A DNA stretch of 64,000 nucleotides from a virus. The stretch is from positions 25,821-89,820 of IMG/VR virus record IMGVR_UViG_3300009414_000001; one strand, written 5' to 3'. The notes beneath the pieces are model-generated. The model was not told where the DNA came from, ran no database searches, and saw nothing but the letters and a program-made list of their open reading frames with translations. A program made the translations under genes and the position numbers. Positions 15,472 to 60,213 of the stretch are shown here, piece by piece. Positions within the stretch are counted from its first letter, which is position 1; every line of letters begins with the position of its first letter.

Positions 15472-16074
15472 TTAACCGAATAAAGCCTTGTCACCAGCAA
15501 CATATGTATCAACCAAATCCTCTTCATCATTATCAAGATAGTTTATTGTTGTTTCTGGCTTACTGTGATTTAAAAGCTGCTGTATTTCTTCAAGTGTGCA
15601 ACCATTTTGCTCTCTCAAGCGTGAACCAGACTTTCTTAACGAATGCGTACCTAAATTTACATTGCCTAACCGACCTATTGAGCGCCTATATCTCATTACA
15701 TCGATTTCAACTTCACACATCCACTCCCACACCCTGCCTCTGCTGATAGGGTTTCGACCACCACCGTAGCGACTTTCAAATAAATACTTGTCATTAGGAA
15801 ACTTAAGGCGCATTTCAGTTAATATTTTTATTGCATGTGGTGTTAACGTGATCAGCTTCTTTTTCTTTGTTTTACCTTCAATTATTTTGAATTGACCTAC
15901 ATCAAGAGCAGCATCTATTTGCTTTGTAGTTAATCTTAATAAATCACTAATCCTTAGCGCCCACAAAGCTGTTAACTCTGCTATCCAGCGAGCTTTTATA
16001 CCTCGTTTTTTCTCTAACGAGTCTAAAATCACATGGAACTCATCTTTATTTCTAGCGCTATGAACTTTACTCAT
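15472..16074 (-). CDS. tyrosine recombinase, catalytic domain only
   Basis: LRISDL, EGKTKK, HSLRK, LNH, TINYL. Confidence 0.88.
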   Translation of the reverse strand: MSKVHSARNKDEFHVILDSLEKKRGIKARWIAELTALWALRISDLLRLTTKQIDAALDVGQFKIIEGKTKKKKLITLTPHAIKILTEMRLKFPNDKYLFESRYGGGRNPISRGRVWEWMCEVEIDVMRYRRSIGRLGNVNLGTHSLRKSGSRLREQNGCTLEEIQQLLNHSKPETTINYLDNDEEDLVDTYVAGDKALFG

Positions 16075-21365: not shown

Positions 21366-21728
21366 CTACTTAAAATAACGATTAAATACGGCGCTGTTAA
21401 TACCGTAAAATTTAGCAACATCATCGAGATGATAAAGATCAGGAAGCAGCTCACCTTTTTCAATTGCAAAATATGCTTCTTTGGTGATATTCATCGCCTT
21501 GGCAACATCTTCTAATTTTGCTCTTTTCTTAGCTCGTAGATTCCTTAGCAATACAACCAAAGTCATTAAATCATCTTTCGGCACCATGACTACTTTAACA
21601 GTGCTCTTGCATGGTGGTACGCAAGAAAAAGCGCTAATGATCATTTTCTTTTGCGCCTCTATAAACGCAAGAGTGTTCAATTCTTGTTTTGACGGATTTA
21701 TCGACTGAAATTGTAATGTTTTAGACAC
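21366..21728 (-). CDS. XRE-family HTH protein
   Basis: LRNLR..LEDVAKAMNITKEAYFAIEKG..PD. Confidence 0.75.
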   Translation of the reverse strand: MSKTLQFQSINPSKQELNTLAFIEAQKKMIISAFSCVPPCKSTVKVVMVPKDDLMTLVVLLRNLRAKKRAKLEDVAKAMNITKEAYFAIEKGELLPDLYHLDDVAKFYGINSAVFNRYFK

Positions 21729-21742
21729 TTCATATTTCCTAT

Positions 21743-21889
21743 TTAGATTTTTGCTAAACGCTTAGAACGATTTTTCTGCTCTCTTTGCTCTCGTTTTAGC
21801 TTTTTACTTGCAACATACTCGTCGTGTTCCTCAGAGTGTTTTTTGCCTTTTAACTTCGACATTAATCTGCCGTTTAGTTTCTTAGCCAT
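21743..21889 (-). CDS. small basic hypothetical protein
   Basis: Start at MAKKLN with AGGA RBS. Confidence 0.5.
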   Translation of the reverse strand: MAKKLNGRLMSKLKGKKHSEEHDEYVASKKLKREQREQKNRSKRLAKI

Positions 21890-21890
21890 T

Positions 21891-22055
21891 TCAACTTCCT
21901 TTTTTGTCGTATTTGCGTTTTTCATACCACTCATAGCCACAACCGTGGCATTTATAACCAATACATGTCATGCCGCTATAACGCTCGACAGGGAAATGTT
22001 CTTTGTTATTTTTCTTATGAATAAACACACCTTTCAACCAGTTAATTATTGTCAT
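21891..22055 (-). CDS. 54-aa zinc-ribbon-like protein (not in ORF track)
   Basis: MTIINW...YKCHGCGYEW; preceded by TAGGAATGGC leader. Confidence 0.55.
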   Translation of the reverse strand: MTIINWLKGVFIHKKNNKEHFPVERYSGMTCIGYKCHGCGYEWYEKRKYDKKGS

Positions 22056-22077
22056 TTGCCATTCCTATATTAAAAAT

Positions 22078-22326
22078 TTAACGTGCGCCAGTTTCATCTT
22101 TAAATTTTAACTGCCCCGTAACCCGTCTTTTAGACGCATTTATTTCATCTTGAGAATAACGACCAAAACACCACCTTTTAAATTCTGACCATTGCCTAGC
22201 AGCTTGAGAATTATCACTAAACTCTGACTCTTGATAATACTGCTTCAACCTACCATCAAGAGCCAATATTGCCTCATCAACTTTGAATGTTTGTAGGTAT
22301 TGGCTTTCAAAGCTTTCCTTATTCAT
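22078..22326 (-). CDS. hypothetical protein
   Basis: TAGGAAACGGC leader. Confidence 0.6.
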   Translation of the reverse strand: MNKESFESQYLQTFKVDEAILALDGRLKQYYQESEFSDNSQAARQWSEFKRWCFGRYSQDEINASKRRVTGQLKFKDETGAR

Positions 22327-22341
22327 AAGTGCCGTTTCCTA

Positions 22342-22641
22342 TTACTCGTCCCACTCGCTACGGGGTGGAATATTTATATTTTCTAAATCTTCAATATGCA
22401 TACCTAGCTCTGACGCATCTTCACGACTTAGACCTATTTCATTTAGATATTTAACATCAATATCAATACAGTCATTACACAACAATGAGCGCAATAACGA
22501 CCGAAACCTAGCAGAGCGATCAAACTCGTCACCAATGCCTACGCTTATCACTTTGTGAGTTTTACCTTCGTGCTGAATTTCTCTAGCAAAAGTATCAAGA
22601 CCAACGACTGAAAGAGTCATTAAATTTGTATCTTCGGACAT
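22342..22641 (-). CDS. hypothetical protein
   Basis: TAGGAAAC leader. Confidence 0.6.
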   Translation of the reverse strand: MSEDTNLMTLSVVGLDTFAREIQHEGKTHKVISVGIGDEFDRSARFRSLLRSLLCNDCIDIDVKYLNEIGLSREDASELGMHIEDLENINIPPRSEWDE

Positions 22642-22656
22642 AAAAAAAGTTTCCTA

Positions 22657-22947
22657 TTAAGATAAAAAGCGCTTAACGCACTCTTTGGTTGTTAAAAATC
22701 TTTCATTTTCGCCTGCTCGATTACAGCAAAGGAAAGGCTCTAGCTCTTCACTAGGTAAAGCACTAGTTCCATACAGCTGCGCCCTCTTTAACCTTTCGTC
22801 TAATCGCTCCAAACCATTAGAGCCTTGTTCTTCTTTTATCAATGAAGTTAGTTGCTCCAAAGTTATCGAAGACACAAACCTAAAGCCGTCACTAATAGTG
22901 CAGTAGAAGTTGTATTTACCTTTGTGGTGACAAATAATCTGAGCCAT
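22657..22947 (-). CDS. conserved-looking phage hypothetical protein
   Basis: RL.RA..YGTS, CNRAGENE..L motifs; TAGGAAG leader. Confidence 0.65.
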   Translation of the reverse strand: MAQIICHHKGKYNFYCTISDGFRFVSSITLEQLTSLIKEEQGSNGLERLDERLKRAQLYGTSALPSEELEPFLCCNRAGENERFLTTKECVKRFLS

Positions 22948-22962
22948 TTCGCTTCCTATACG

Positions 22963-23118
22963 TTATTGATGATCACAATCTTGGCAAGGCTCACCAAATA
23001 CAACATCTGAGTACTTACAAATATTGCAAGGGAATGAGAAGCTATGCGGTGACTGCTTTTCGTGCTCAAAATTACTTTTCTCAACCTTTAATACTTCTAT
23101 TAAATCCATGTTATCCAT
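22963..23118 (-). CDS. 51-aa CxxC..CxxC protein (not in ORF track)
   Basis: PCNICKY..PCQDCDH; TAGGAAG leader. Confidence 0.55.
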   Translation of the reverse strand: MDNMDLIEVLKVEKSNFEHEKQSPHSFSFPCNICKYSDVVFGEPCQDCDHQ

Positions 23119-23130
23119 TTTACTTCCTAC

Positions 23131-23220
23131 TTAACCTTCGTTTGTTGGTGTCGCTGCTTTAGGGTGAAATAAAGCTCTGTTAACTGCTATCGAAATTAGT
23201 GATTTCTTAAAAAAATACAT
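23131..23220 (-). CDS. 29-aa peptide (not in ORF track)
   Basis: TAGGAAAC leader; fills gap between two leaders exactly. Confidence 0.35.
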   Translation of the reverse strand: MYFFKKSLISIAVNRALFHPKAATPTNEG

Positions 23221-23232
23221 ATGTGCTGTTTC

Positions 23233-23727
23233 CTACACTAAGTTAGTTAGTGAATTAAGTTTTAATTTAACCCTATGCGCAGCATGATTTGATAACCCTG
23301 CATAAGCATCTGTATGTATGAAATGCTCAGCTTGTTCAAGTAACATATCTGAGCTGTCATCAATGATCACATACTGCTTAAAATTGAATGAATCAGCACC
23401 TAGAACCTCTTTATTTTCATAAAGCCATGCTTTGATCTCGTTCCCACGAACAGAATGCTGGCCTAGATGTGGCGTTTGACCAACTACCTCACCCGTAACA
23501 CCGAATACTTTAAGCATTTTTTTGTTTTCGCCTAACCCTGAACATCTCCAAGCTGAACTAATAACAATTTTTGCACCCGTTTCGTCAGTGATTTTATTAA
23601 GATTTTCAACTAGTGATTTATTCATCCAACCATAAGGCAGAACTTTTAAAACGTCAGAACTTTCGCTATTTGAAGCTACTAGCGCCTTATTCAAAACGCC
23701 GTCAATATCTAAGAAAATAATACGCAT
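23233..23727 (-). CDS. HAD-domain protein (Swiss Army Knife RNA-repair type)
   Basis: IFLDIDGVLN, IVISSAWR, RGNEI..WL, YVIIDD. Confidence 0.85.
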   Translation of the reverse strand: MRIIFLDIDGVLNKALVASNSESSDVLKVLPYGWMNKSLVENLNKITDETGAKIVISSAWRCSGLGENKKMLKVFGVTGEVVGQTPHLGQHSVRGNEIKAWLYENKEVLGADSFNFKQYVIIDDSSDMLLEQAEHFIHTDAYAGLSNHAAHRVKLKLNSLTNLV

Positions 23728-53078: not shown

Positions 53079-53666
53079 TTAATCGTTGTCTTTTATGCAG
53101 ACAAGCGAACCATTAGCTAACGCAAAGTGCTTGATAATGCTTTCTGGTGGCAATCCTAGACTCTTAACGCACTCAGTCACAAATATAACCAGCCCACCCT
53201 TTTTGGCGTGCTCTTGCGCTGCTTTCGCAATCTTAGCGCCATTTGTACCTACATCATCGATGAGGTAAGTCTTTTTGCTGCTTGTTAGCGGCTGATTGTC
53301 GCCTACAATTTCAATGTCTTGATTGCTTGCTTTGAGCGCCTTTATTAATGCTTCTCTTCCTGCGCCAGCATTACTCTCAATGTAAACAGGCACCACCTTC
53401 GAAAGAAAAAACATCGCCTTTACAGCGCCCTCGATAACATTGATTTGCTTATTTGTGCTTTCGGTCATCACTACCTCGTCGTATTTAGTTGTTGCATCAG
53501 TATTTTTAACTTCGCCAGTTGAAAGTTTTGGCTGCTTGAGAACAAAGCTGGCCTTGGCTGCTTCTTTTGTTTTGCCAAAGCCACTAAATGTTATTAAATT
53601 CATCTTATGGGTAAAGCAGCGATATTGTTCGGCTTGTTCGCAATATTCATATTGTAAGTTATCCAT
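53079..53666 (-). CDS. hypothetical protein, degenerate P-loop-like C-terminus
   Basis: SNAGAGRE, YLIDDV; leader motif. Confidence 0.55.
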   Translation of the reverse strand: MDNLQYEYCEQAEQYRCFTHKMNLITFSGFGKTKEAAKASFVLKQPKLSTGEVKNTDATTKYDEVVMTESTNKQINVIEGAVKAMFFLSKVVPVYIESNAGAGREALIKALKASNQDIEIVGDNQPLTSSKKTYLIDDVGTNGAKIAKAAQEHAKKGGLVIFVTECVKSLGLPPESIIKHFALANGSLVCIKDND

Positions 53667-53683
53667 AACAAAAGTTTCCTATA

Positions 53684-53824
53684 TTACATCTCTTCAAGAT
53701 CAGGTAGTGCAGAGCGCGCATCTTCCCATGATTCAAATTCATATTTTACACGTTGAGGGTAAATCAGTACTTCAACAGTACCGTCCTCAAATTCAACCAT
53801 TGAAACCTTGCGTTGACTACTCAT
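53684..53824 (-). CDS. 46-aa hypothetical protein (not in ORF track)
   Basis: TAGGAAACGGCTTTTATG leader. Confidence 0.55.
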   Translation of the reverse strand: MSSQRKVSMVEFEDGTVEVLIYPQRVKYEFESWEDARSALPDLEEM

Positions 53825-53839
53825 AAAAGCCGTTTCCTA

Positions 53840-54097
53840 TTAAATTAAACCAGTAAATAACACATCTTTTTGTGATGGATTATTTTCAGCATTTTCTTTG
53901 ATATTCTCGTTAGACATCCATAAATAACCAAGCTCTTTACCATCTTCGATAATCATGAATTTAGCGTGTTCTTTTCCACGACCATGACGAGTGTAATTTT
54001 TATCAATGAGGCGATATGTGATAACTGGCTCGCAATCACAATCATTAGCACCACATTGACCGCATAAAGCAAACTGTACCTCTGATTCGTTAGTCAT
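53840..54097 (-). CDS. hypothetical protein
   Basis: CGQCG..DCDC; leader motif. Confidence 0.6.
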   Translation of the reverse strand: MTNESEVQFALCGQCGANDCDCEPVITYRLIDKNYTRHGRGKEHAKFMIIEDGKELGYLWMSNENIKENAENNPSQKDVLFTGLI

Positions 54098-54127
54098 AAT
54101 TGCCATTTCCTATATAAATAATTAGTG

Positions 54128-54556
54128 TTAAACGTCACCGTCACGATGTTGTGGTGGCACTTCAAAAGGTTCTAAATCAGGGCAGTCAAAAGCAACACTT
54201 ACACAAGTAAAATCGACTTGGCTTTCAAGAACTGACTCAAGGCATTGTAATTCTTCAAGCCATTCCTGAGTGGCTTCGCCATTTTCAGTGTCATGCCAAT
54301 TGTCGCTACGGTCTGCCATGTAACAATCAATTTTGCCTGTTTGCTCGGTTACTAGTGAGTGAGTGTTTTCAAGTAGTTCATTGTGCTTGTCCGTGAACTC
54401 TTCAAGCGTTAACCCGTCCACCTTAAACTCAGCTACTTTTGCTCTCATGTACTCTTCAAGTTCATCTTTGAAGTTAGCCACTTGCTCCAAGTTACTATTA
54501 AGCTTTTCAATGCGTTCAGCTATTTCTTGATGCGCTTTATTATTGATTTTTTTCAT
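54128..54556 (-). CDS. acidic helical hypothetical protein
   Basis: YM.DRSDNW..TENGEA..EW motif; leader. Confidence 0.65.
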   Translation of the reverse strand: MKKINNKAHQEIAERIEKLNSNLEQVANFKDELEEYMRAKVAEFKVDGLTLEEFTDKHNELLENTHSLVTEQTGKIDCYMADRSDNWHDTENGEATQEWLEELQCLESVLESQVDFTCVSVAFDCPDLEPFEVPPQHRDGDV

Positions 54557-54574
54557 TAAAAGCCATTTCCTATA

Positions 54575-55063
54575 TTAAGATTCAAAGATAAACACAACAA
54601 CCACATCAAGCGATTTCACAAGGGTTTTTGCCTCTATCATTAACTTATCTTTTTCAGTTAAAACGTATTCTTCATCTTTATCTTCGGGTAACTCAATATC
54701 ATAATTACAGATACTAGCAAGAGCGCTTAAATGATGATTAAAAGAGTCATTAGCCGTTACTGCTTCCGCACTCCCGTATTCAAACGATAATGTGTCAAAA
54801 TTGTTTTCATGTTGATTTAATTCGCACTGTGAAACTCTTACGTTGATCACTGGCAAAATAATGTCACTATCAGGTTCTAACAAATATTCTAAACAGCGAT
54901 TTTTCGCAAGGGCTTTGCCGCTTGGTGTTCCGCTACCTACGGTCACGGAATTTAGTAAAGTGACCACGTTAACTTGCGCGGCTAAAGTTTTCTTACCGTT
55001 AACATCTGATTGGCTACACATGCCTTGAACCGTGATTGTTTGCTTGAAAAGCCTTCTATTCAT
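54575..55063 (-). CDS. hypothetical protein (degenerate DGQHR/DndB-like?)
   Basis: YLL....IILP.I.V...NDSFNHHLSAL; leader. Confidence 0.5.
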   Translation of the reverse strand: MNRRLFKQTITVQGMCSQSDVNGKKTLAAQVNVVTLLNSVTVGSGTPSGKALAKNRCLEYLLEPDSDIILPVINVRVSQCELNQHENNFDTLSFEYGSAEAVTANDSFNHHLSALASICNYDIELPEDKDEEYVLTEKDKLMIEAKTLVKSLDVVVVFIFES

Positions 55064-55072
55064 TGCCGTTTC

Positions 55073-55402
55073 CTACTTAAGAGAATGACTATTTTCTATG
55101 TCACTAAGCTCGTTTAGAACTATTGCAACAGCGAAGCTTTTAGCTTGTTTAGTCATTCGTGTTTCTGAATTAATTTCTTTGCCAATTTTGAACAGTGATT
55201 GCTTAACAGCTTCGTTTGAATTTCGATTATTCCAACAATTGATAGCATCTTTTTCTTTAACCCAACCACCGCCCTCTTGCTCCATATTAACTTTACAGGT
55301 AGCACATGAAACCGACCAAAGCTGCCAACCATTACAGTAAGACTGTACGAATTCATCACTACCGCAAAAGGGGCAAGGTAAAGGTATTAATCGTTTAGCC
55401 AT
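55073..55402 (-). CDS. Lar-family restriction-alleviation protein
   Basis: LPCPFCGS...V.C..C...AI..WNNR. Confidence 0.8.
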   Translation of the reverse strand: MAKRLIPLPCPFCGSDEFVQSYCNGWQLWSVSCATCKVNMEQEGGGWVKEKDAINCWNNRNSNEAVKQSLFKIGKEINSETRMTKQAKSFAVAIVLNELSDIENSHSLK

Positions 55403-55414
55403 AAAAGCCATTTC

Positions 55415-55609
55415 CTATATTAAGTTATTCAATTTATCTAGTCGTTTTTGTCTGCGACCTAGCTCTTTAATCCGTTGCTTACGCTTTCTTTTTTCACGGT
55501 GATTGACTTTGTCATCAGTCAAACATTTTGGCATGGGTAAATCATTAACAGCTTGAGCCATGGAGCTACTTGTTAAGCCAAGACCTAGACTTAAAACGAC
55601 CTTTTTCAT
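55415..55609 (-). CDS. small basic hypothetical protein
   Basis: Leader motif. Confidence 0.5.
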   Translation of the reverse strand: MKKVVLSLGLGLTSSSMAQAVNDLPMPKCLTDDKVNHREKRKRKQRIKELGRRQKRLDKLNNLI

Positions 55610-55627
55610 AAGTGTCCGTCTCCTATA

Positions 55628-55921
55628 TTAAGAATATTGTTCTTCTGCCCAAACTTTCCAATCAAAACCACACTCACATTTGTTATGTTCGTCTTGATAT
55701 TCAGCATCTAATTCACAATCATCATTTGGGCAAGTTGGCACTTCAACGGTTATCTTTGTACCAACAGGAAATCTCTTAGCATTAAAAGAGAAATCGTCCA
55801 TTTGCTCTGTTGCCATATCACCTTCACATTGCGTTTCAATGTATGGTTTATGCTCTTGACAGCTATCACCACAGTAAACATCAACTTTAACTTGACCTGT
55901 TGCTACTACGTTATATTCCAT
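55628..55921 (-). CDS. Cys-rich hypothetical protein
   Basis: CPNDDC..KCECGFDW..W.E.QYS. Confidence 0.6.
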   Translation of the reverse strand: MEYNVVATGQVKVDVYCGDSCQEHKPYIETQCEGDMATEQMDDFSFNAKRFPVGTKITVEVPTCPNDDCELDAEYQDEHNKCECGFDWKVWAEEQYS

Positions 55922-55931
55922 GTTCCATATC

Positions 55932-56120
55932 CTATACTCGTTTAATTAAATGTTTAGGTGTTTCAATAAACAAAAACCAAGCCCAACCCACAAGACCAGA
56001 TAGTAACAATTGAAAAGCAGCTTCCTTTCTATTTTTTGGCTTCGGTAGAATGTGAATTGTTACAAACGCAATAGCTGAATAGATGCACAGCCAACCCCAA
56101 ATTTGAGTTAATATTTCCAC
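55932..56120 (-). CDS. small membrane protein
   Basis: GTG start after TAGGAAAAGGC leader; two TMs. Confidence 0.55.
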   Translation of the reverse strand: MEILTQIWGWLCIYSAIAFVTIHILPKPKNRKEAAFQLLLSGLVGWAWFLFIETPKHLIKRV

Positions 56121-56130
56121 TTGCCTTTTC

Positions 56131-56259
56131 CTATTGCTGTTTTGGTTCGGGACATTCGCTTTGCTGAACATCAAAGTTAATCTGATTTGACTGCAAAAAT
56201 TCCATCAAGGATTCAATTTCTTCCTCGTTATTTTGAAAACTATCAATAACTATTTTCAT
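56131..56259 (-). CDS. 42-aa acidic peptide (not in ORF track)
   Basis: MKIVIDSFQ...; leader motif; its stop is the TAG of the next leader. Confidence 0.55.
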   Translation of the reverse strand: MKIVIDSFQNNEEEIESLMEFLQSNQINFDVQQSECPEPKQQ

Positions 56260-56281
56260 CGTTCCATTTCCTATACGTTAA

Positions 56282-56542
56282 TTAATAAAAATCATTGAGT
56301 CGCTTTAACTCTGCGATCACTTCGGTTTTTATAAAAGAAACCCAACCGCATTCAGGCTTTACACCTCCATAAAAAACCACTTCAACAATTGGATCGGGCA
56401 ATGAAAAAAAGCTAAATCCAGTGTCGTTTAAATACTTTTGAGCAACCAAATCACAATAACTTTGTATCTCAGCATGAACACGGATTGATTCATTAGCTAG
56501 CTTGACACTTCTGTCACATATTTGACCTATACTTTTAGCCAT
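56282..56542 (-). CDS. hypothetical protein
   Basis: Leader motif. Confidence 0.6.
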   Translation of the reverse strand: MAKSIGQICDRSVKLANESIRVHAEIQSYCDLVAQKYLNDTGFSFFSLPDPIVEVVFYGGVKPECGWVSFIKTEVIAELKRLNDFY

Positions 56543-56827
56543 AAAAAGCCATTTCCTATATTAAATTAGGTTGTAGTTTTACTTGATTACGCAAGGACGA
56601 TTTACATTGTCGCTTTCAATGGGTTTACTGTTACCTCAGTCCGATTTCTAGCACTTATAGAATACGGATAACGGAAGTTGCATTTATTTTTTATTAGAGT
56701 CATTAAAGCTAAATCTCTCTAGCGGTTCTCTGTTATTTGCAAAGCATTTTAGAACCTGCTGAACACCTCGTTGCTTTTGTAAATGACACTATCAAAAATG
56801 CCATTAGCAAAAGCCGTTTCCTATACG

Positions 56828-57115
56828 TTAAATATTGCCATTTCGTTCAAAAATCGCACTCACTTCATCATTTGATAAATCGAATTGACCGACAACAATA
56901 TTTCTGTCGGTATCACCAAAGCCATCACTGTAGTATTGGTCGATAAGACTTGAAAAATGCTTGTAAGCATTCGCTTTTGTCGGATTATCTAACATTGATG
57001 TTAAAACATCGTTGTTGCACCAAGCTCCACAATAATCTCTTATGTCGTGACCGCAGATTTCACGCAACCTGTAATAGTCTTTTTTTGCTCTTTCGTAATT
57101 ATCTTTAATACCCAT
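56828..57115 (-). CDS. hypothetical protein
   Basis: Start MGIKDN after leader. Confidence 0.6.
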   Translation of the reverse strand: MGIKDNYERAKKDYYRLREICGHDIRDYCGAWCNNDVLTSMLDNPTKANAYKHFSSLIDQYYSDGFGDTDRNIVVGQFDLSNDEVSAIFERNGNI

Positions 57116-57131
57116 AAAAGCCGTTTCCCAT

Positions 57132-57341
57132 TTAAGTTCGTTGTTCAATAAGAGATAAAACATACACACTTCTATTGATATTTTTATCTTTCGCTTCGTT
57201 TGTTAATTCATCACGTAGTTTTTCTGGCAACCAAATTTCTAAACGAACATTTCCTTTTTCTTTTTTAGCTTTTTGAGCTTTTCTTTGGTTAACTTTTAGT
57301 TGTTCACTTCTAGGTAATTCGTTTGTTTTTGGTCTAGCCAT
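57132..57341 (-). CDS. RHH DNA-binding protein (YbfE-like)
   Basis: RPKTNELPRSEQLKVNQR...G.VRLEIWL...NINRS. Confidence 0.75.
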   Translation of the reverse strand: MARPKTNELPRSEQLKVNQRKAQKAKKEKGNVRLEIWLPEKLRDELTNEAKDKNINRSVYVLSLIEQRT

Positions 57342-57354
57342 AAAAAGCCGTTTC

Positions 57355-57573
57355 CTATACTGGTAAAAGTTGATATTGGCACTCAGTAGACATCACTGTT
57401 CGCCCATTATCTAAGTTAATAATCATAAGCCCCGCACCTGAAACATCTTCACGGATAATTGTGCCTAAAATCGTTTTGCTAGTATCGTAATTAAAGCAAA
57501 CTTTAACCTTTCGATTTAACCAAGCACCTTGTTCGGGGAAGTTATCAAGGCTAATGTTATTTTCAATTCCCAT
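57355..57573 (-). CDS. hypothetical protein
   Basis: Leader motif. Confidence 0.6.
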   Translation of the reverse strand: MGIENNISLDNFPEQGAWLNRKVKVCFNYDTSKTILGTIIREDVSGAGLMIINLDNGRTVMSTECQYQLLPV

Positions 57574-57584
57574 CGTTCCGTTTC

Positions 57585-57839
57585 CTATCGTCTAATTTCG
57601 CTAAATTCACACTTTTTACAGTGGTAAAAATCGGGATGATCATCACTAGGCTGTTCCATATCATGATCACCGTCTTGACAGAAAACTTCATAGTGAAACA
57701 TTATCGATGTTGTGAACTTAAATTCTCTCTCACAACTAACGCAATCTTGCTCATGCTTTCGATCTTCTTCGTAACCATAACCATCATCGTGATTAATTTC
57801 GTTCTCTGCGCCACAATAAGGGCAATTGATATCTGACAT
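57585..57839 (-). CDS. zinc-ribbon protein
   Basis: CPYCG..C.SC..C..H..CKKC. Confidence 0.65.
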   Translation of the reverse strand: MSDINCPYCGAENEINHDDGYGYEEDRKHEQDCVSCEREFKFTTSIMFHYEVFCQDGDHDMEQPSDDHPDFYHCKKCEFSEIRR

Positions 57840-57904
57840 TTGCCGTTTCCTACTTAATTAATTTACGCATAAGTGATAAATAAATCACTCATGGAGTAAA
57901 TCAA

Positions 57905-58078
57905 CTAATCCAATTCAACTTTAACCCTTTCAGGCTCTAAATTTCGCTCGATGAAATACATCATACTTGCACTTTGAACAGCTAATTTTTTATCTGTAAC
58001 CAAAGTTTTATCCTTGCTTAGATAGTGCCTAACACCATCAATAACTTCATAACCTATATACTCATGAACATACGCCAT
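57905..58078 (-). CDS. hypothetical protein
   Basis: Start MAYVHE after leader variant. Confidence 0.5.
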   Translation of the reverse strand: MAYVHEYIGYEVIDGVRHYLSKDKTLVTDKKLAVQSASMMYFIERNLEPERVKVELD

Positions 58079-58127
58079 AATAATTCCCGTTTCCCATAGG
58101 GCGCTAAGCGCCCATTTAATTAATTTA

Positions 58128-59027
58128 TTAAGTGATAATGTAGCGATAATGGAAGCGCACATAATAACCCTCAACAGGTATTGCGCGTACATACATTGCT
58201 CGCCCATCAAGCTCTAACCTTACATCAAAACCTTTGCCGCCTACGCTAGTAGAGTTTACTTTAACAGCAGGCTTTTTATCTTCTCTGTGATAGTCAGCAA
58301 CCTTACTTGCAGCGTAGTTAACGCACTCCGCAAAATTTTCATCAATAAGCTTTAAAAACTTTTCATTATCGAATTTGCAAGCGATACATAACCTTAACGC
58401 GCCCATATCAGCTATTTTTTTTCTACCTGCATAAAAGAACTTTTTAACCGTTTTAAATTCACCGTCAGGATCAATCAAACTAACCATTTTATTGTAGTGA
58501 GCAATTGAATTTATTCTGATTGTCTGTGCATCTTCCTTGATAGCTTTGTTTATCGCTGAATAAATAACTTTTGCAGCGCTAGACATTTCAGGCTTGTTGT
58601 ATTTTTTAGGCAAAGGCTTGTTTAGCGTGTCGTAAACACCCTTAATGTCAGTCATAGTGATTTCACCAAGAATATAAAGGTCTTCAAGATCACCAACCAA
58701 CTCACGGCATAATCTTGGTTTTATATCAGCAGCGTAATCTTTTATTTTTGCTAGAGTGAATTTGCGTTGATTACTCAAAAGAGCGAACAGCTTAACAGTT
58801 AATAATTTAAGCTTTTTCAAGTCATCTGCGCATTCTGTATTAACACTCTGAAAACGCGAACCCTCAATAGCATCGTTTAAGTAAAACAAATCACATGAGG
58901 CTTTGATTCTTTCGTCAGCGTTGTATTCGCTAGTAAAGAAAAACTTCTTAGCTTTAAGTAGCGCTAGTATCTCACTAGATACAGCATTGACCTTTTCAAT
59001 ATTCTTTTTTGAAATAACCTTAATCAT
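58128..59027 (-). CDS. hypothetical protein
   Basis: 299 aa; C-terminal AI..EG..V.FHYRYI; first gene after strong promoter. Confidence 0.65.
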   Translation of the reverse strand: MIKVISKKNIEKVNAVSSEILALLKAKKFFFTSEYNADERIKASCDLFYLNDAIEGSRFQSVNTECADDLKKLKLLTVKLFALLSNQRKFTLAKIKDYAADIKPRLCRELVGDLEDLYILGEITMTDIKGVYDTLNKPLPKKYNKPEMSSAAKVIYSAINKAIKEDAQTIRINSIAHYNKMVSLIDPDGEFKTVKKFFYAGRKKIADMGALRLCIACKFDNEKFLKLIDENFAECVNYAASKVADYHREDKKPAVKVNSTSVGGKGFDVRLELDGRAMYVRAIPVEGYYVRFHYRYIIT

Positions 59028-59058
59028 TCTGTTGCACTCAATTAATTAACTTGAATTG

Positions 59059-59086
59059 ATTATAGTCTCATTTTGAGACTATGCAA
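59059..59086 (-). promoter_or_regulatory. sigma70 promoter with palindromic operator in spacer
   Basis: TTGCAT-N16-TATAAT containing TAGTCTCA-N3-TGAGACTA. Confidence 0.75.
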
Positions 59087-59288
59087 GCCTTTTTTGTATC
59101 AATTTGAGACTTTCTTTTTTAGATAGTAAATCAATTGTTTCAGCACCATAAGCAACAGGCTTACTAACGGGTCTATCACCACTAGCAAACTTAAAACCGT
59201 TAGCTCTTGAAGTGCCTAGCACTTTTGCCGCTTGCTCAATGGTAAGACTGTATTTTTCAGCCCATGCGTTAAACTCTTCTTTAGTCAT
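59079..59288 (-). CDS. small XRE/Cro-like HTH regulator
   Basis: MTKEEFNAW...LTIEQAAKVLGTSR...FASGDRPV. Confidence 0.75.
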   Translation of the reverse strand: MTKEEFNAWAEKYSLTIEQAAKVLGTSRANGFKFASGDRPVSKPVAYGAETIDLLSKKESLKLIQKRLA

Positions 59289-60066
59289 TTTTTGGCTTTC
59301 TGCCTCTTTTCTTTGGCTTCGGAAACATTTCTTTAGCGCATTTTCTAATGTGGTTAAAATCAACGTCTGTATAGTCGCGTTGGCTTTTAATGTCCCTATG
59401 ATGTAATAAATTTTGCACTATAGGATCAGTGTCTAATTCTTTTCTATTTAGTAGCTTCTGAGCAAGTCTAGCCATACTATGCCGCCCAGTGTGCGAACTT
59501 GAATTACTAAAGCCATAATTTTTATAAAGCTTACTAAGTAGGTTTTGCACTGCCGTAGCAACAAGGTAATTTTTGCCCTTGCTCACTTTTTTGGTTAATG
59601 AGAAATTTTGCCAAGTACCGCGCCAATTACTCAGAAATACATGGCTTTCAGGATCTAAGCCTCTGTATTGCTCGTCACCATCTTTATTTAGCTTAATACA
59701 GTGCTTAACGCGATAATCTAGCCACCTGTTAACGTATTCTCGCTGTTCATCTATGACAATAGGGGCAATGGCAGGGTATTTACCTTTTGTGGCTTCTGCT
59801 CGCAATCTGGTTAAGTGTACTAGCGAACCATCAGGATAAAGCGCCTCTTTTACTTTCCATTGGCTAACCTCGATAGCACGAAAACAACTACCGTAACTCA
59901 TCCAAAGCATTGCTTGGTTACGCGCACAAATAAGCGCATCTAAACGCTCATTATCAATACGTTCAACTAAATCAATGAATTCATCAGGGCTTAGCGTTTC
60001 AGGCTGTTTAACTGTGCGTAAATCTGGCACATTCCACACCCATTTAACTTGTAATTCTTCGCTCAT
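59281..60066 (-). CDS. tyrosine recombinase
   Basis: RNQAML, FRAIEV, TKGK, SSHTGR, LLHH, RDY. Confidence 0.85.
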   Translation of the reverse strand: MSEELQVKWVWNVPDLRTVKQPETLSPDEFIDLVERIDNERLDALICARNQAMLWMSYGSCFRAIEVSQWKVKEALYPDGSLVHLTRLRAEATKGKYPAIAPIVIDEQREYVNRWLDYRVKHCIKLNKDGDEQYRGLDPESHVFLSNWRGTWQNFSLTKKVSKGKNYLVATAVQNLLSKLYKNYGFSNSSSHTGRHSMARLAQKLLNRKELDTDPIVQNLLHHRDIKSQRDYTDVDFNHIRKCAKEMFPKPKKRGRKPKND

Positions 60067-60213
60067 AAAACCTAATTGGAAATAATCATTTCCTATACGA
60101 TAGCACAAAAAGAAAACAATACGCTATAAGTATTGTTTTTATTGGGGTGATAGGAAACGTGCAAGGGGAATTAATCAACAGACATAAAAAAGGCCGCAAT
60201 AGCGACCTTACTT

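Follow-up and report, generated by a model that had tools for sequence, protein, structure and literature searches.

In a marine P1-like phage, a short leader that stands before each gene of a row of small accessory genes is specific to such rows, is conserved throughout the family of related loci and is the place where the gene cassettes are joined. The row lies in IMG/VR virus record IMGVR_UViG_3300009414_000001, which has 89,820 bp and a 123-bp terminal repeat and is rated complete. The window analysed here is the stretch of 64,000 nucleotides at bases 25821-89820 of that record, and positions below are those of the window unless the genome or a related locus is named. It is very probable that the leader has a dual role, serving both as Shine-Dalgarno (SD) element and as the joint at which cassettes are exchanged. 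That the exchange is catalysed by the tyrosine recombinase encoded beside the array is, in our estimate, just short of an even chance.

Exact copies of AAAAGCCRTTTCCTAT occur six times on the + strand (53825, 54558, 55403, 56544, 56809 and 57343), with none expected from 100 shuffles, and allowing up to three mismatches gives 15 matches where 2.2 are expected. An earlier note, made from the letters of this DNA alone, had listed these six copies; the sixth is real but begins at 57343 rather than 57342, an extra A shifting the register. All 11 variant sites listed there contain TTCC[TC]A or a near form where they had been placed, and the two oppositely oriented copies reported at 60090 and 60151 were found as well. 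On the minus strand, which is the coding strand of the array, the motif reads (T/A)ATAGGAAAYGG(C/A). When the 21 leaders of the genome are aligned on GGA, the T(-1) and the G, G and A are invariant, A(-2) is present in 18 of the 21, the AA in 19 and the GG after the Y in 17-18. Counted from the start codon, the first G of GGA is 9-16 nt upstream, in most cases 13, and so has the position of an SD element. The form TAGGAAAYGG has 12 copies in the 89.8-kb genome, all on the minus strand and 11 of them within the array. T[AG]GGAAA placed 12-16 nt before a start is limited to the array and to a second row at ~21.4-23.2 kb; it precedes none of the ~120 other genes, which bears out the earlier claim that core genes do not have the leader.

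Conservation was also said to reach beyond the SD element, and the 21 leaders do have further invariant or near-invariant positions. Compared with the standard anti-SD sequence, AGGA appears to be the sole part of the leader able to pair with the 16S rRNA tail, and its place strongly suggests that it is the SD element of each cassette. Because pairing is limited to AGGA, the other conserved positions need another explanation. Extended pairing of the leader with 16S rRNA was rejected for that reason, and a T7-type promoter (TATAGG...) was rejected because there is no conservation 5' of TATA and a phage RNA polymerase was not seen. TAGGAAAY-N2-7-ATG was counted in the genomes of five hosts of relatives and, local clusters at the elements apart, stays near its control count. 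The leader is thus not a ribosome-binding habit of the hosts, and the objection that it might be no more conserved than host ribosome-binding sites does not hold.

One explanation is that the leader is purely a site of translational control, recognised by some protein or RNA factor of the host or the element that regulates the accessory genes together, and that junctions fall there only because selection keeps recombinants between genes. It would then correspond, in Gammaproteobacteria, to the start-associated sequences (SAS) of cluster K mycobacteriophages, which are asymmetric 13-bp motifs with an SD core, 3-7 bp before the starts of non-structural genes of different families, in one orientation with a rare inverted copy and with some positions unable to pair with rRNA (PMC3203893). 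The likeness to that description is close: the leader too is an asymmetric SD-core motif at a fixed distance, in one orientation, before accessory genes only, and it too has conserved positions that cannot pair with 16S rRNA. The earlier note had offered modular exchange or an SAS-like site as its two readings; the analysis supports it overall, and these same features fit the second reading. The SAS consensus GGGATAGGAGCCC differs from TATAGGAAAYGG here, only ATAGGA being common to both, and the hosts belong to another phylum, being Gammaproteobacteria here. SAS genes are scattered, and neither shuffling at SAS nor a linked recombinase has been reported for them. We regard a purely translational site as very unlikely, on grounds given below.

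The array runs on the minus strand from 58098 down to 53079 with a leader 5' of every unit. The earlier estimate of about 17 units is right, there being 16 open reading frames (ORFs) of 42-195 aa and one leader with a 23-codon remnant. Gaps between ORFs are 9-30 nt and are made up of the leader; the TAG of the motif doubles as the stop of the upstream ORF at 6 of 16 junctions, and most of the others have TAA 0-5 nt before the motif. Within the array no inverted repeats were found between cassettes. A scan of the gene strand from 58000 to 53000 gave no promoter-like or terminator-like site, and there is one strong promoter upstream; the cassettes are probably promoter-less and transcribed as one operon. 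The element is a hyperplastic gene-cassette array. Its cassette families are a Lar-like protein, which had been predicted as cargo and matches PF14354 with an E value of 3.2e-7, and two PHROGs of unknown function; the other cassettes have no assignable function. Cassette 6 (see Table 1 for all units) is probably a decayed cassette, and its region (56543-56827) folds unremarkably as RNA (z -0.85).

A protein search with the recombinase gave 52 homologues from Shewanella, Pseudoalteromonas, Alteromonas, Moritella, Vibrio and others, several of which (P0004, P0016 and others) are encoded on ~90-kb contigs. Loci were fetched with 10-kb flanks and comprised 13 genomic, 1 viral and 34 metagenomic loci and 2 complete plasmids, pKD01 and p1 (L-numbers below denote loci of relatives and P-numbers protein homologues). 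Orthologues 55-82% identical are present at ~45 loci in Alteromonas, Vibrio, Photobacterium, Shewanella and other marine bacteria, and tblastn of the recombinase against cultured phages found none. Approximately half of the loci have rows of small genes downstream, with WTRGGAAAY 3-8 nt before the start codon. Strict leaders in 338 kb number 136 in the sense orientation and 2 in the antisense control, and at least three leaders are found at 21 of 40 loci. Rows beside orthologous recombinases share almost no genes, so neither order nor content is fixed. Public records label the genes only as hypothetical proteins and 'site-specific integrase'.

The window's cassettes illustrate this turnover, in that two of them have any homologue in the set of relatives. 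Cassette 15 is the only one shared with another array (L161), where it is 77% identical in nucleotides and 75% in amino acids and has other neighbours; residues 1-48 of cassette 17 are 52% identical to a 62-aa cassette of L007. The latter locus came from an exact-motif scan of viral contigs, as one true array among chance matches, and a recombinase-like gene of very divergent sequence stands at the head of its row, preceded by GCACGTTTCCCAT. The complete 336-kb plasmid pKD01 of A. macleodii (L169, NZ_CP147979.1) has the recombinase and at least 27 small hypothetical genes at ~79.8-97.5 kb (~17 kb). A different arrangement, the Alteromonas 'type I' rows, lies upstream of the recombinase and consists of monocistronic units (L125 6300-9900, L124 880-8650 and L123 6500-8650), each of which has a terminator, GAACGTTTCCYAY, a promoter region of ~110 bp similar to the one before the recombinase, and an ORF behind a GAGGAAACCACTATG leader; the type I repeat is ~130 bp. 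The plasmid p1 of V. chagasii (L172, NZ_AP025467.1, 112-151 kb) has a different array of ~39 kb with 19 copies of a ~550-bp repeat containing GGGTGGGCCTCGGAGTGCGTAGGAAATGCAATGGCC. Minus-strand genes in groups of 1-3 stand between these repeats; several of the genes encode cytosine methyltransferases and one a DGQHR protein, and the 19 copies of AGGAAATGCAATG in p1 belong to this separate repeat.

Rearrangements were observed in close relatives; the window's own array has no close relative, and megablast of the array region against phage and plasmid collections gave no match. The Alteromonas-type loci L145, L146, L147, L150, L151, L152 and L167 contain blocks that are 97-100% identical in differing orders (A-B-D-C, X-D-Y-C and X-B-C-Z-A-E), and cassettes have been re-ordered, inserted and duplicated. 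All block ends were printed, and at each of them homology begins or stops inside (A)GGAAAYN. In one junction ...ttaatag / AGGAAACACGATGG is found against ...gacaagt / AGGAAACACGATGG, and in another ...ATGGGAAAC / gcgttttATG against ...ATGGGAAAC / actATG. The 3' side of the motif travels with the spacer and ORF, and the 5' side with the stop codon and TAT. In an automatic count of 110 unique breakpoints downstream of recombinase genes, 44% were within 6 bp of the motif, compared with 2.9% for random positions, for which 200 trials gave a maximum of 8%. Among the other breakpoints, several coincide with motif variants outside the search pattern, such as ATAGGAGAC and ATAGGATAAG. A 224-bp perfect duplicate in L007 extends exactly from GGAAACGG to the next leader's GGAAATGG, with one cassette between the two copies. 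Gene order in relatives is consequently not fixed, contrary to what would have refuted the earlier reading, and the breakpoints of re-ordered relatives are within the motif.

Shuffling of this kind could be guided by homology without a dedicated enzyme. The leader would be kept for translation and host or phage recombination would cross over there, occasionally, because the same 9-20 nt recur between all cassettes; the recombinase would do another job, for example multimer resolution or integration at its own upstream site. This is a serious possibility, which we place clearly below even. Leaders within one genome do share up to ~20 nt (TATAGGAAAYGGCTTTTATGGC in the window and TAGATGGGAAATTTTATG in L134), the type I rows have their ~130-bp repeats, and rows exist away from a recombinase gene. 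In the V. chagasii plasmid the recombinase adjoins replication or partition genes, as resolution systems do, and the PeSLs of T4-type phages provide a precedent (PMC2839356). Against homology, many junctions share only ~8 bases between the parents, which is short for RecA-type recombination, yet the events are frequent relative to substitutions. The copy of a single cassette at a non-adjacent place in L007 needs two events. Homology also leaves unexplained the three 10-mers at the recombinase promoter and the inverted copy that acts as a junction.

The adjacent tyrosine recombinase that had been proposed is indeed one (PF00589, E 1.3e-9, 38.5 bits against a cut-off of 27.1). The first catalytic Arg of its 261 aa is already at residue 63, so that an N-terminal core-binding domain is lacking. 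In an alignment with 20 homologues, R63, H192, R195, H222, H223 and Y232 are invariant and K94 is conserved in at least 90%; these residues favour a catalytically intact enzyme. The AlphaFold model (pLDDT 71) resembles XerA, XerH and Cre, and VchIntIA ranks 28th among the structure matches. The genome encodes two further tyrosine recombinases, which could do housekeeping, and no serine recombinase gene was found in it. Distant homologues (27-33% identity, ~220-230 aa, 'site-specific integrase') are common on Pseudomonas and Burkholderia plasmids and likewise precede small hypothetical genes, as in pSE5419-1; these proteins perhaps represent a broader family of small recombinases of plasmids.

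The stop codon of the recombinase overlaps the start of the helix-turn-helix (HTH) gene, whose presence upstream of the array had been noted. Its product has no match in Pfam or PHROG, an 84%-identical homologue in L157 and a neighbouring gene in pKD01 annotated as an HTH protein; it is a likely regulator of the array promoter. That promoter had been called strong: TTGCAT-16-TATAAT is present, but it fails a consensus scan, the first hexamer matching at three of six positions. Its spacer is a palindrome, AGTCTCA-AAA-TGAGACT, a putative operator. On the gene strand, the terminator of a DUF1353 gene comes first and is followed by arm c, which is the leader core in inverted form, and then in turn by a hairpin, a forward copy, the recombinase, the HTH gene, the promoter, a 299-aa gene, a GC hairpin and the array.

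The region before the recombinase is conserved family-wide in the order CGTTTCCTATCACCC, hairpin, T-run, GYACTACCATATAGGAAAC, 4-5 nt, GTTTCCTATAT and ATG, and relatives read CTACCATATAGGAAAC-N4-5-GTTTCCTATAT at the site of the forward copy. Arm c is present in nearly all relatives, with the forward copy 61 +/-1 bp and a second inverted copy (right arm) 74 +/-1 bp away, so that three copies of the 9-10-mer stand at the recombinase promoter in fixed spacing. A strong hairpin is found in ~17 of 29 relatives with differing stems, and the loop yTGTAGAC is kept even where there is no stem; the TTATAGC loop of the window corresponds to it. The loop plausibly acts as a -35-like element; a promoter TAGAC-18-TACCAT would start transcription in the forward copy. 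As single-stranded DNA, the segment from arm c to the forward copy is predicted to form a bulged hairpin (z -2.9), which is suggestive. RNAalifold of the region upstream of the recombinase gave only the invariant pairing of arm c with the left arm, without covariation; the inner hairpin was mis-aligned by MAFFT and was assessed instead by single-sequence folds. The idea that the 61 bp from arm c to the left arm invert as a promoter switch was rejected because the segment is too short for inversion.

Arm c is itself a joint. The inverted 10-mer CGTTTCCTAT is the upstream boundary of the conserved recombinase module and is also a junction: homology between otherwise unrelated flanks begins exactly there, and nucleotide homology of the window to every relative is limited to 60160-59282, from arm c to the recombinase stop. 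Between L150 and L151, identity is 94% as far as a large indel that ends at arm c; beyond the indel, beginning with arm c, it is 100%. L145 and L167 differ by one 889-bp unit flanked by ACGTTTCC repeats. This unit (L145 9012-9900) encodes a 262-aa protein and has the perfect palindrome TGTCGTAATACGACA on both sides of the gene, where it looks like the gene's own operator.

In favour of a purely translational site, arm c and the sequence behind it have the layout of a small antisense RNA: arm c is the complement of the leader, and after it come a tract rich in A/U, a hairpin and a U-run. No promoter is conserved before arm c, however, and homology begins at arm c itself. The A/G variants of the leader do not track the T/C variant of arm c; a search for covariation between them gave no clear pattern. 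Nor does translational control explain arm c as a DNA junction or the perfect motif-to-motif duplication in L007.

The copies at the recombinase promoter also allow the 9-10-mer to be an operator, either for the HTH protein or for the recombinase acting as a repressor, that silences accessory rows in the plasmid state. Operators can be single and asymmetric, as those of the P1 C1 repressor are, and the single asymmetric copies here occur in both orientations, with a paired copy at an autoregulated promoter and a constant 61-bp spacing to the upstream copy. But a constant distance of 3-8 nt to every start codon is not something that an operator requires, the window's array promoter has a different palindrome, and the junctions are left unexplained. 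We consider this the least probable of the readings and highly unlikely. Taken together, the purely translational and the regulatory site, with junctions due to selection, are unlikely.

In the reading that we favour, the TA(A/G) in or just before the leader would stop the preceding ORF and AGGA would start the next. Since the motif carries both stop and SD element, any ORF joined there would automatically be fitted for translation, and the promoter and operator just downstream of the recombinase-HTH pair would drive the whole row. The recombinase would take the 9-10-bp core as its site, in the manner of FimB/E or Rci, whose sites are short or one-armed; it would excise cassettes, re-insert them at any copy of the leader and act in trans on the second row. 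The points for the recombinase as the catalyst are its conserved linkage, its catalytic residues, the three promoter 10-mers, the inverted copy used as a junction, the ~8-bp microhomology of junctions despite frequent events and the distant copy of a single cassette.

Several observations weigh against this reading. An inverted second arm is lacking at the leaders, where conservation covers just 9-12 bp, and junction mapping cannot tell a defined crossover from microhomology. The distance from leader to ATG is fixed, which makes translation a primary constraint. The constant presence of the recombinase is partly a matter of ascertainment because the loci were found through it. The right arm is lost in the window's clade, and the L007 homologue of the recombinase (20% identical) has no aligned H-x-x-R/HH/Y residues. 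The second row in the genome is downstream of a TrfA-like operon with no recombinase gene adjoining, and a second leader cluster in pKD01 (~234.9-238.6 kb) is ~140 kb from the first and has no homologous recombinase. Type I rows can use ordinary homologous recombination because a ~130-bp repeat suffices for it. One DNA run (contigs only, probably of the source sample) contained no variants, joints or circular forms.

Integrons are among the closest known systems. As in integrons, a tyrosine recombinase gene adjoins small and unrelated ORFs that all run in one direction, here probably promoter-less for the most part; a short core is found at every cassette boundary; content and order differ between close relatives; and cassettes are gained, lost and re-ordered with junctions in the core site, as seen in the relatives here. 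The recombinase, however, is co-directional with the row and has 261 aa without an N-terminal domain, whereas IntI has ~320 aa, two domains and a specific insertion of its own. There are no attC hairpins (57-141 nt at the 3' end of a cassette), the intergenic spaces being 9-30 nt. The core here is 5' of the ORF and doubles as the SD element, and ATAGGAAAC bears no relation to GTTRRRY. In operation the system resembles an integron, yet with no IntI-type enzyme and no attC it is no member of the integrons.

The PeSLs of T4-type phages are units of promoter and terminator recombined by homology (PMC2839356, PMC4122927). They share with the array a repeated boundary sequence in hyperplastic regions rich in ORFans, a repeat that also carries expression signals, and insertions, deletions and replacements that distinguish close relatives and end in the repeat. 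The repeat here differs in being a 10-12-nt translation leader within one operon and beside a recombinase gene. The window's leaders hold neither a sigma-70 promoter nor a terminator stem-loop, whereas the type I units of L125 hold both; the Alteromonas type I rows, with terminator, arm-c-like motif and promoter, are closer to PeSLs and share the inverted motif.

The fim switch is worked by FimB/E, small enzymes of single-domain size, at 9-bp repeats. In the R64 shufflon, Rci acts on asymmetric sfx sites with one conserved arm and a core (PMC11852207). Tyrosine recombinases can thus work on one-armed or 9-bp sites. Both systems vary a single gene by inverting the DNA that lies between oppositely oriented sites, whereas the leaders here are direct repeats between unrelated ORFs and the outcome is gain, loss and re-ordering. 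We found no description of the present system in the literature.

Tentatively, and somewhat less confidently than we assign the catalysis itself, we propose a new gene-capture platform of marine gammaproteobacterial plasmids and phage-plasmids, in which a FimB-sized recombinase moves single-gene cassettes at a one-armed SD core. Capture and expression would be coupled without attC hairpins, and the inverted copy upstream of the recombinase would be a second entry point for units that carry a promoter.

Accessory-gene rows of phages and plasmids harbour anti-defence and host-takeover genes, and the turnover of their ORFans is a long-standing question. Botstein reportedly put forward a 'linker' idea, as opposed to random joining plus selection. 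The case described here offers a defined 10-mer joint that is common to several genera and to phage and plasmid backbones, coincides with the ribosome-binding site and is mirrored at the recombinase gene. Whether an enzyme or homology is responsible is testable in the cultured strains A. macleodii KD01 (pKD01) and V. chagasii LMG 21353 (p1). The leader can also serve as a search key for mining hundreds of small unknown genes as candidate counter-defence factors, including Lar-like ones, and if the recombinase acts at the motif it could become a compact tool for cassette assembly.

The source is a P1-like myovirus and probably a phage-plasmid, as its large proteins match the P1-type gene set: a DarB-like antirestriction protein, a 'released upon infection' (DarA-type) protein, a P1-type portal, a tail tube and a tail fibre. 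The GC content is ~39%. An Rfam search (gathering and E-value thresholds) gave nothing relevant, and locus searches by single proteins (299-aa, 195-aa and 1109-aa) found no loci. Table 1 lists the features.

Table 1. Features of the recombinase locus, the cassette array and the rest of the genome. Positions refer to the window unless marked as genome.
Feature	Position	Strand	Description
Arm c	60145..60159	-	CGTTTCCTATCACCC on the gene strand; inverted copy of leader core
Hairpin	60101..60138	-	AAACAATAC-TTATAGC-GTATTGTTT; 9-bp stem, then T-run
Forward copy	60078..60097	-	Leader-type copy with 6-bp right-arm remnant, TATAGGAAAT-GATT-ATTTCC
Recombinase	59281..60066	-	Small tyrosine recombinase, 261 aa; PF00589; phrog_216 integrase
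HTH gene	59079..59288	-	69-aa helix-turn-helix protein; start overlaps recombinase stop
Array promoter	59059..59086	-	TTGCAT-16 nt-TATAAT, read from sequence
First operon gene	58128..59027	-	299 aa; ordinary leader; function unknown
GC hairpin	58099..58113	-	GGGCGCTTAGCGCCC, directly 5' of first leader
Cassette 1	57905..58098	-	Leader TATGGGAAACGG; 57 aa
Cassette 2	57585..57852	-	Leader TAGGAAACGG; 84 aa; CxxC, zinc-ribbon-like
Cassette 3	57355..57587	-	72 aa; phrog_9720; leader TAG is stop of cassette 2
Cassette 4	57132..57357	-	69 aa; leader TAG is stop of cassette 3
Cassette 5	56828..57130	-	Leader ATGGGAAACGGCTTTT; 95 aa
Cassette 6	56560..56823	-	Full leader, 23-codon ORF, then ~190 nt without ORF
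Cassette 7	56282..56558	-	86 aa
Cassette 8	56131..56273	-	42 aa
Cassette 9	55932..56133	-	62 aa; GTG start; hydrophobic; leader TAG is stop of cassette 8
Cassette 10	55628..55934	-	97 aa; phrog_24515; leader TAG is stop of cassette 9
Cassette 11	55415..55625	-	Leader TATAGGAGACGG; 64 aa
Cassette 12	55073..55417	-	109 aa; Lar-like restriction alleviation protein; PF14354, E 3.2e-7; phrog_599
Cassette 13	54575..55075	-	162 aa
Cassette 14	54128..54572	-	142 aa
Cassette 15	53840..54112	-	85 aa; ORF 53840-54097
Cassette 16	53684..53839	-	46 aa
Cassette 17	53079..53681	-	195 aa
Second row	21366-23241	-	~7 small genes with the same leader type (TAGGAAACGGCACTTATG, TAGGAAACTTTTTTTATG, TATAGGAAGCGAAATG and others)
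Further tyrosine recombinase gene	7757-8656		299 aa
Further tyrosine recombinase gene	15472-16074		200 aa
(T)GTACTAACAAATAAACTAAAGG copies	62667, 38738; genome 12758, 18597, 23670, 24359		Upstream of structural genes

Another type of leader, (T)GTACTAACAAATAAACTAAAGG, was observed directly 5' of ~9 virion or late genes and is a candidate late promoter or leader of the phage.

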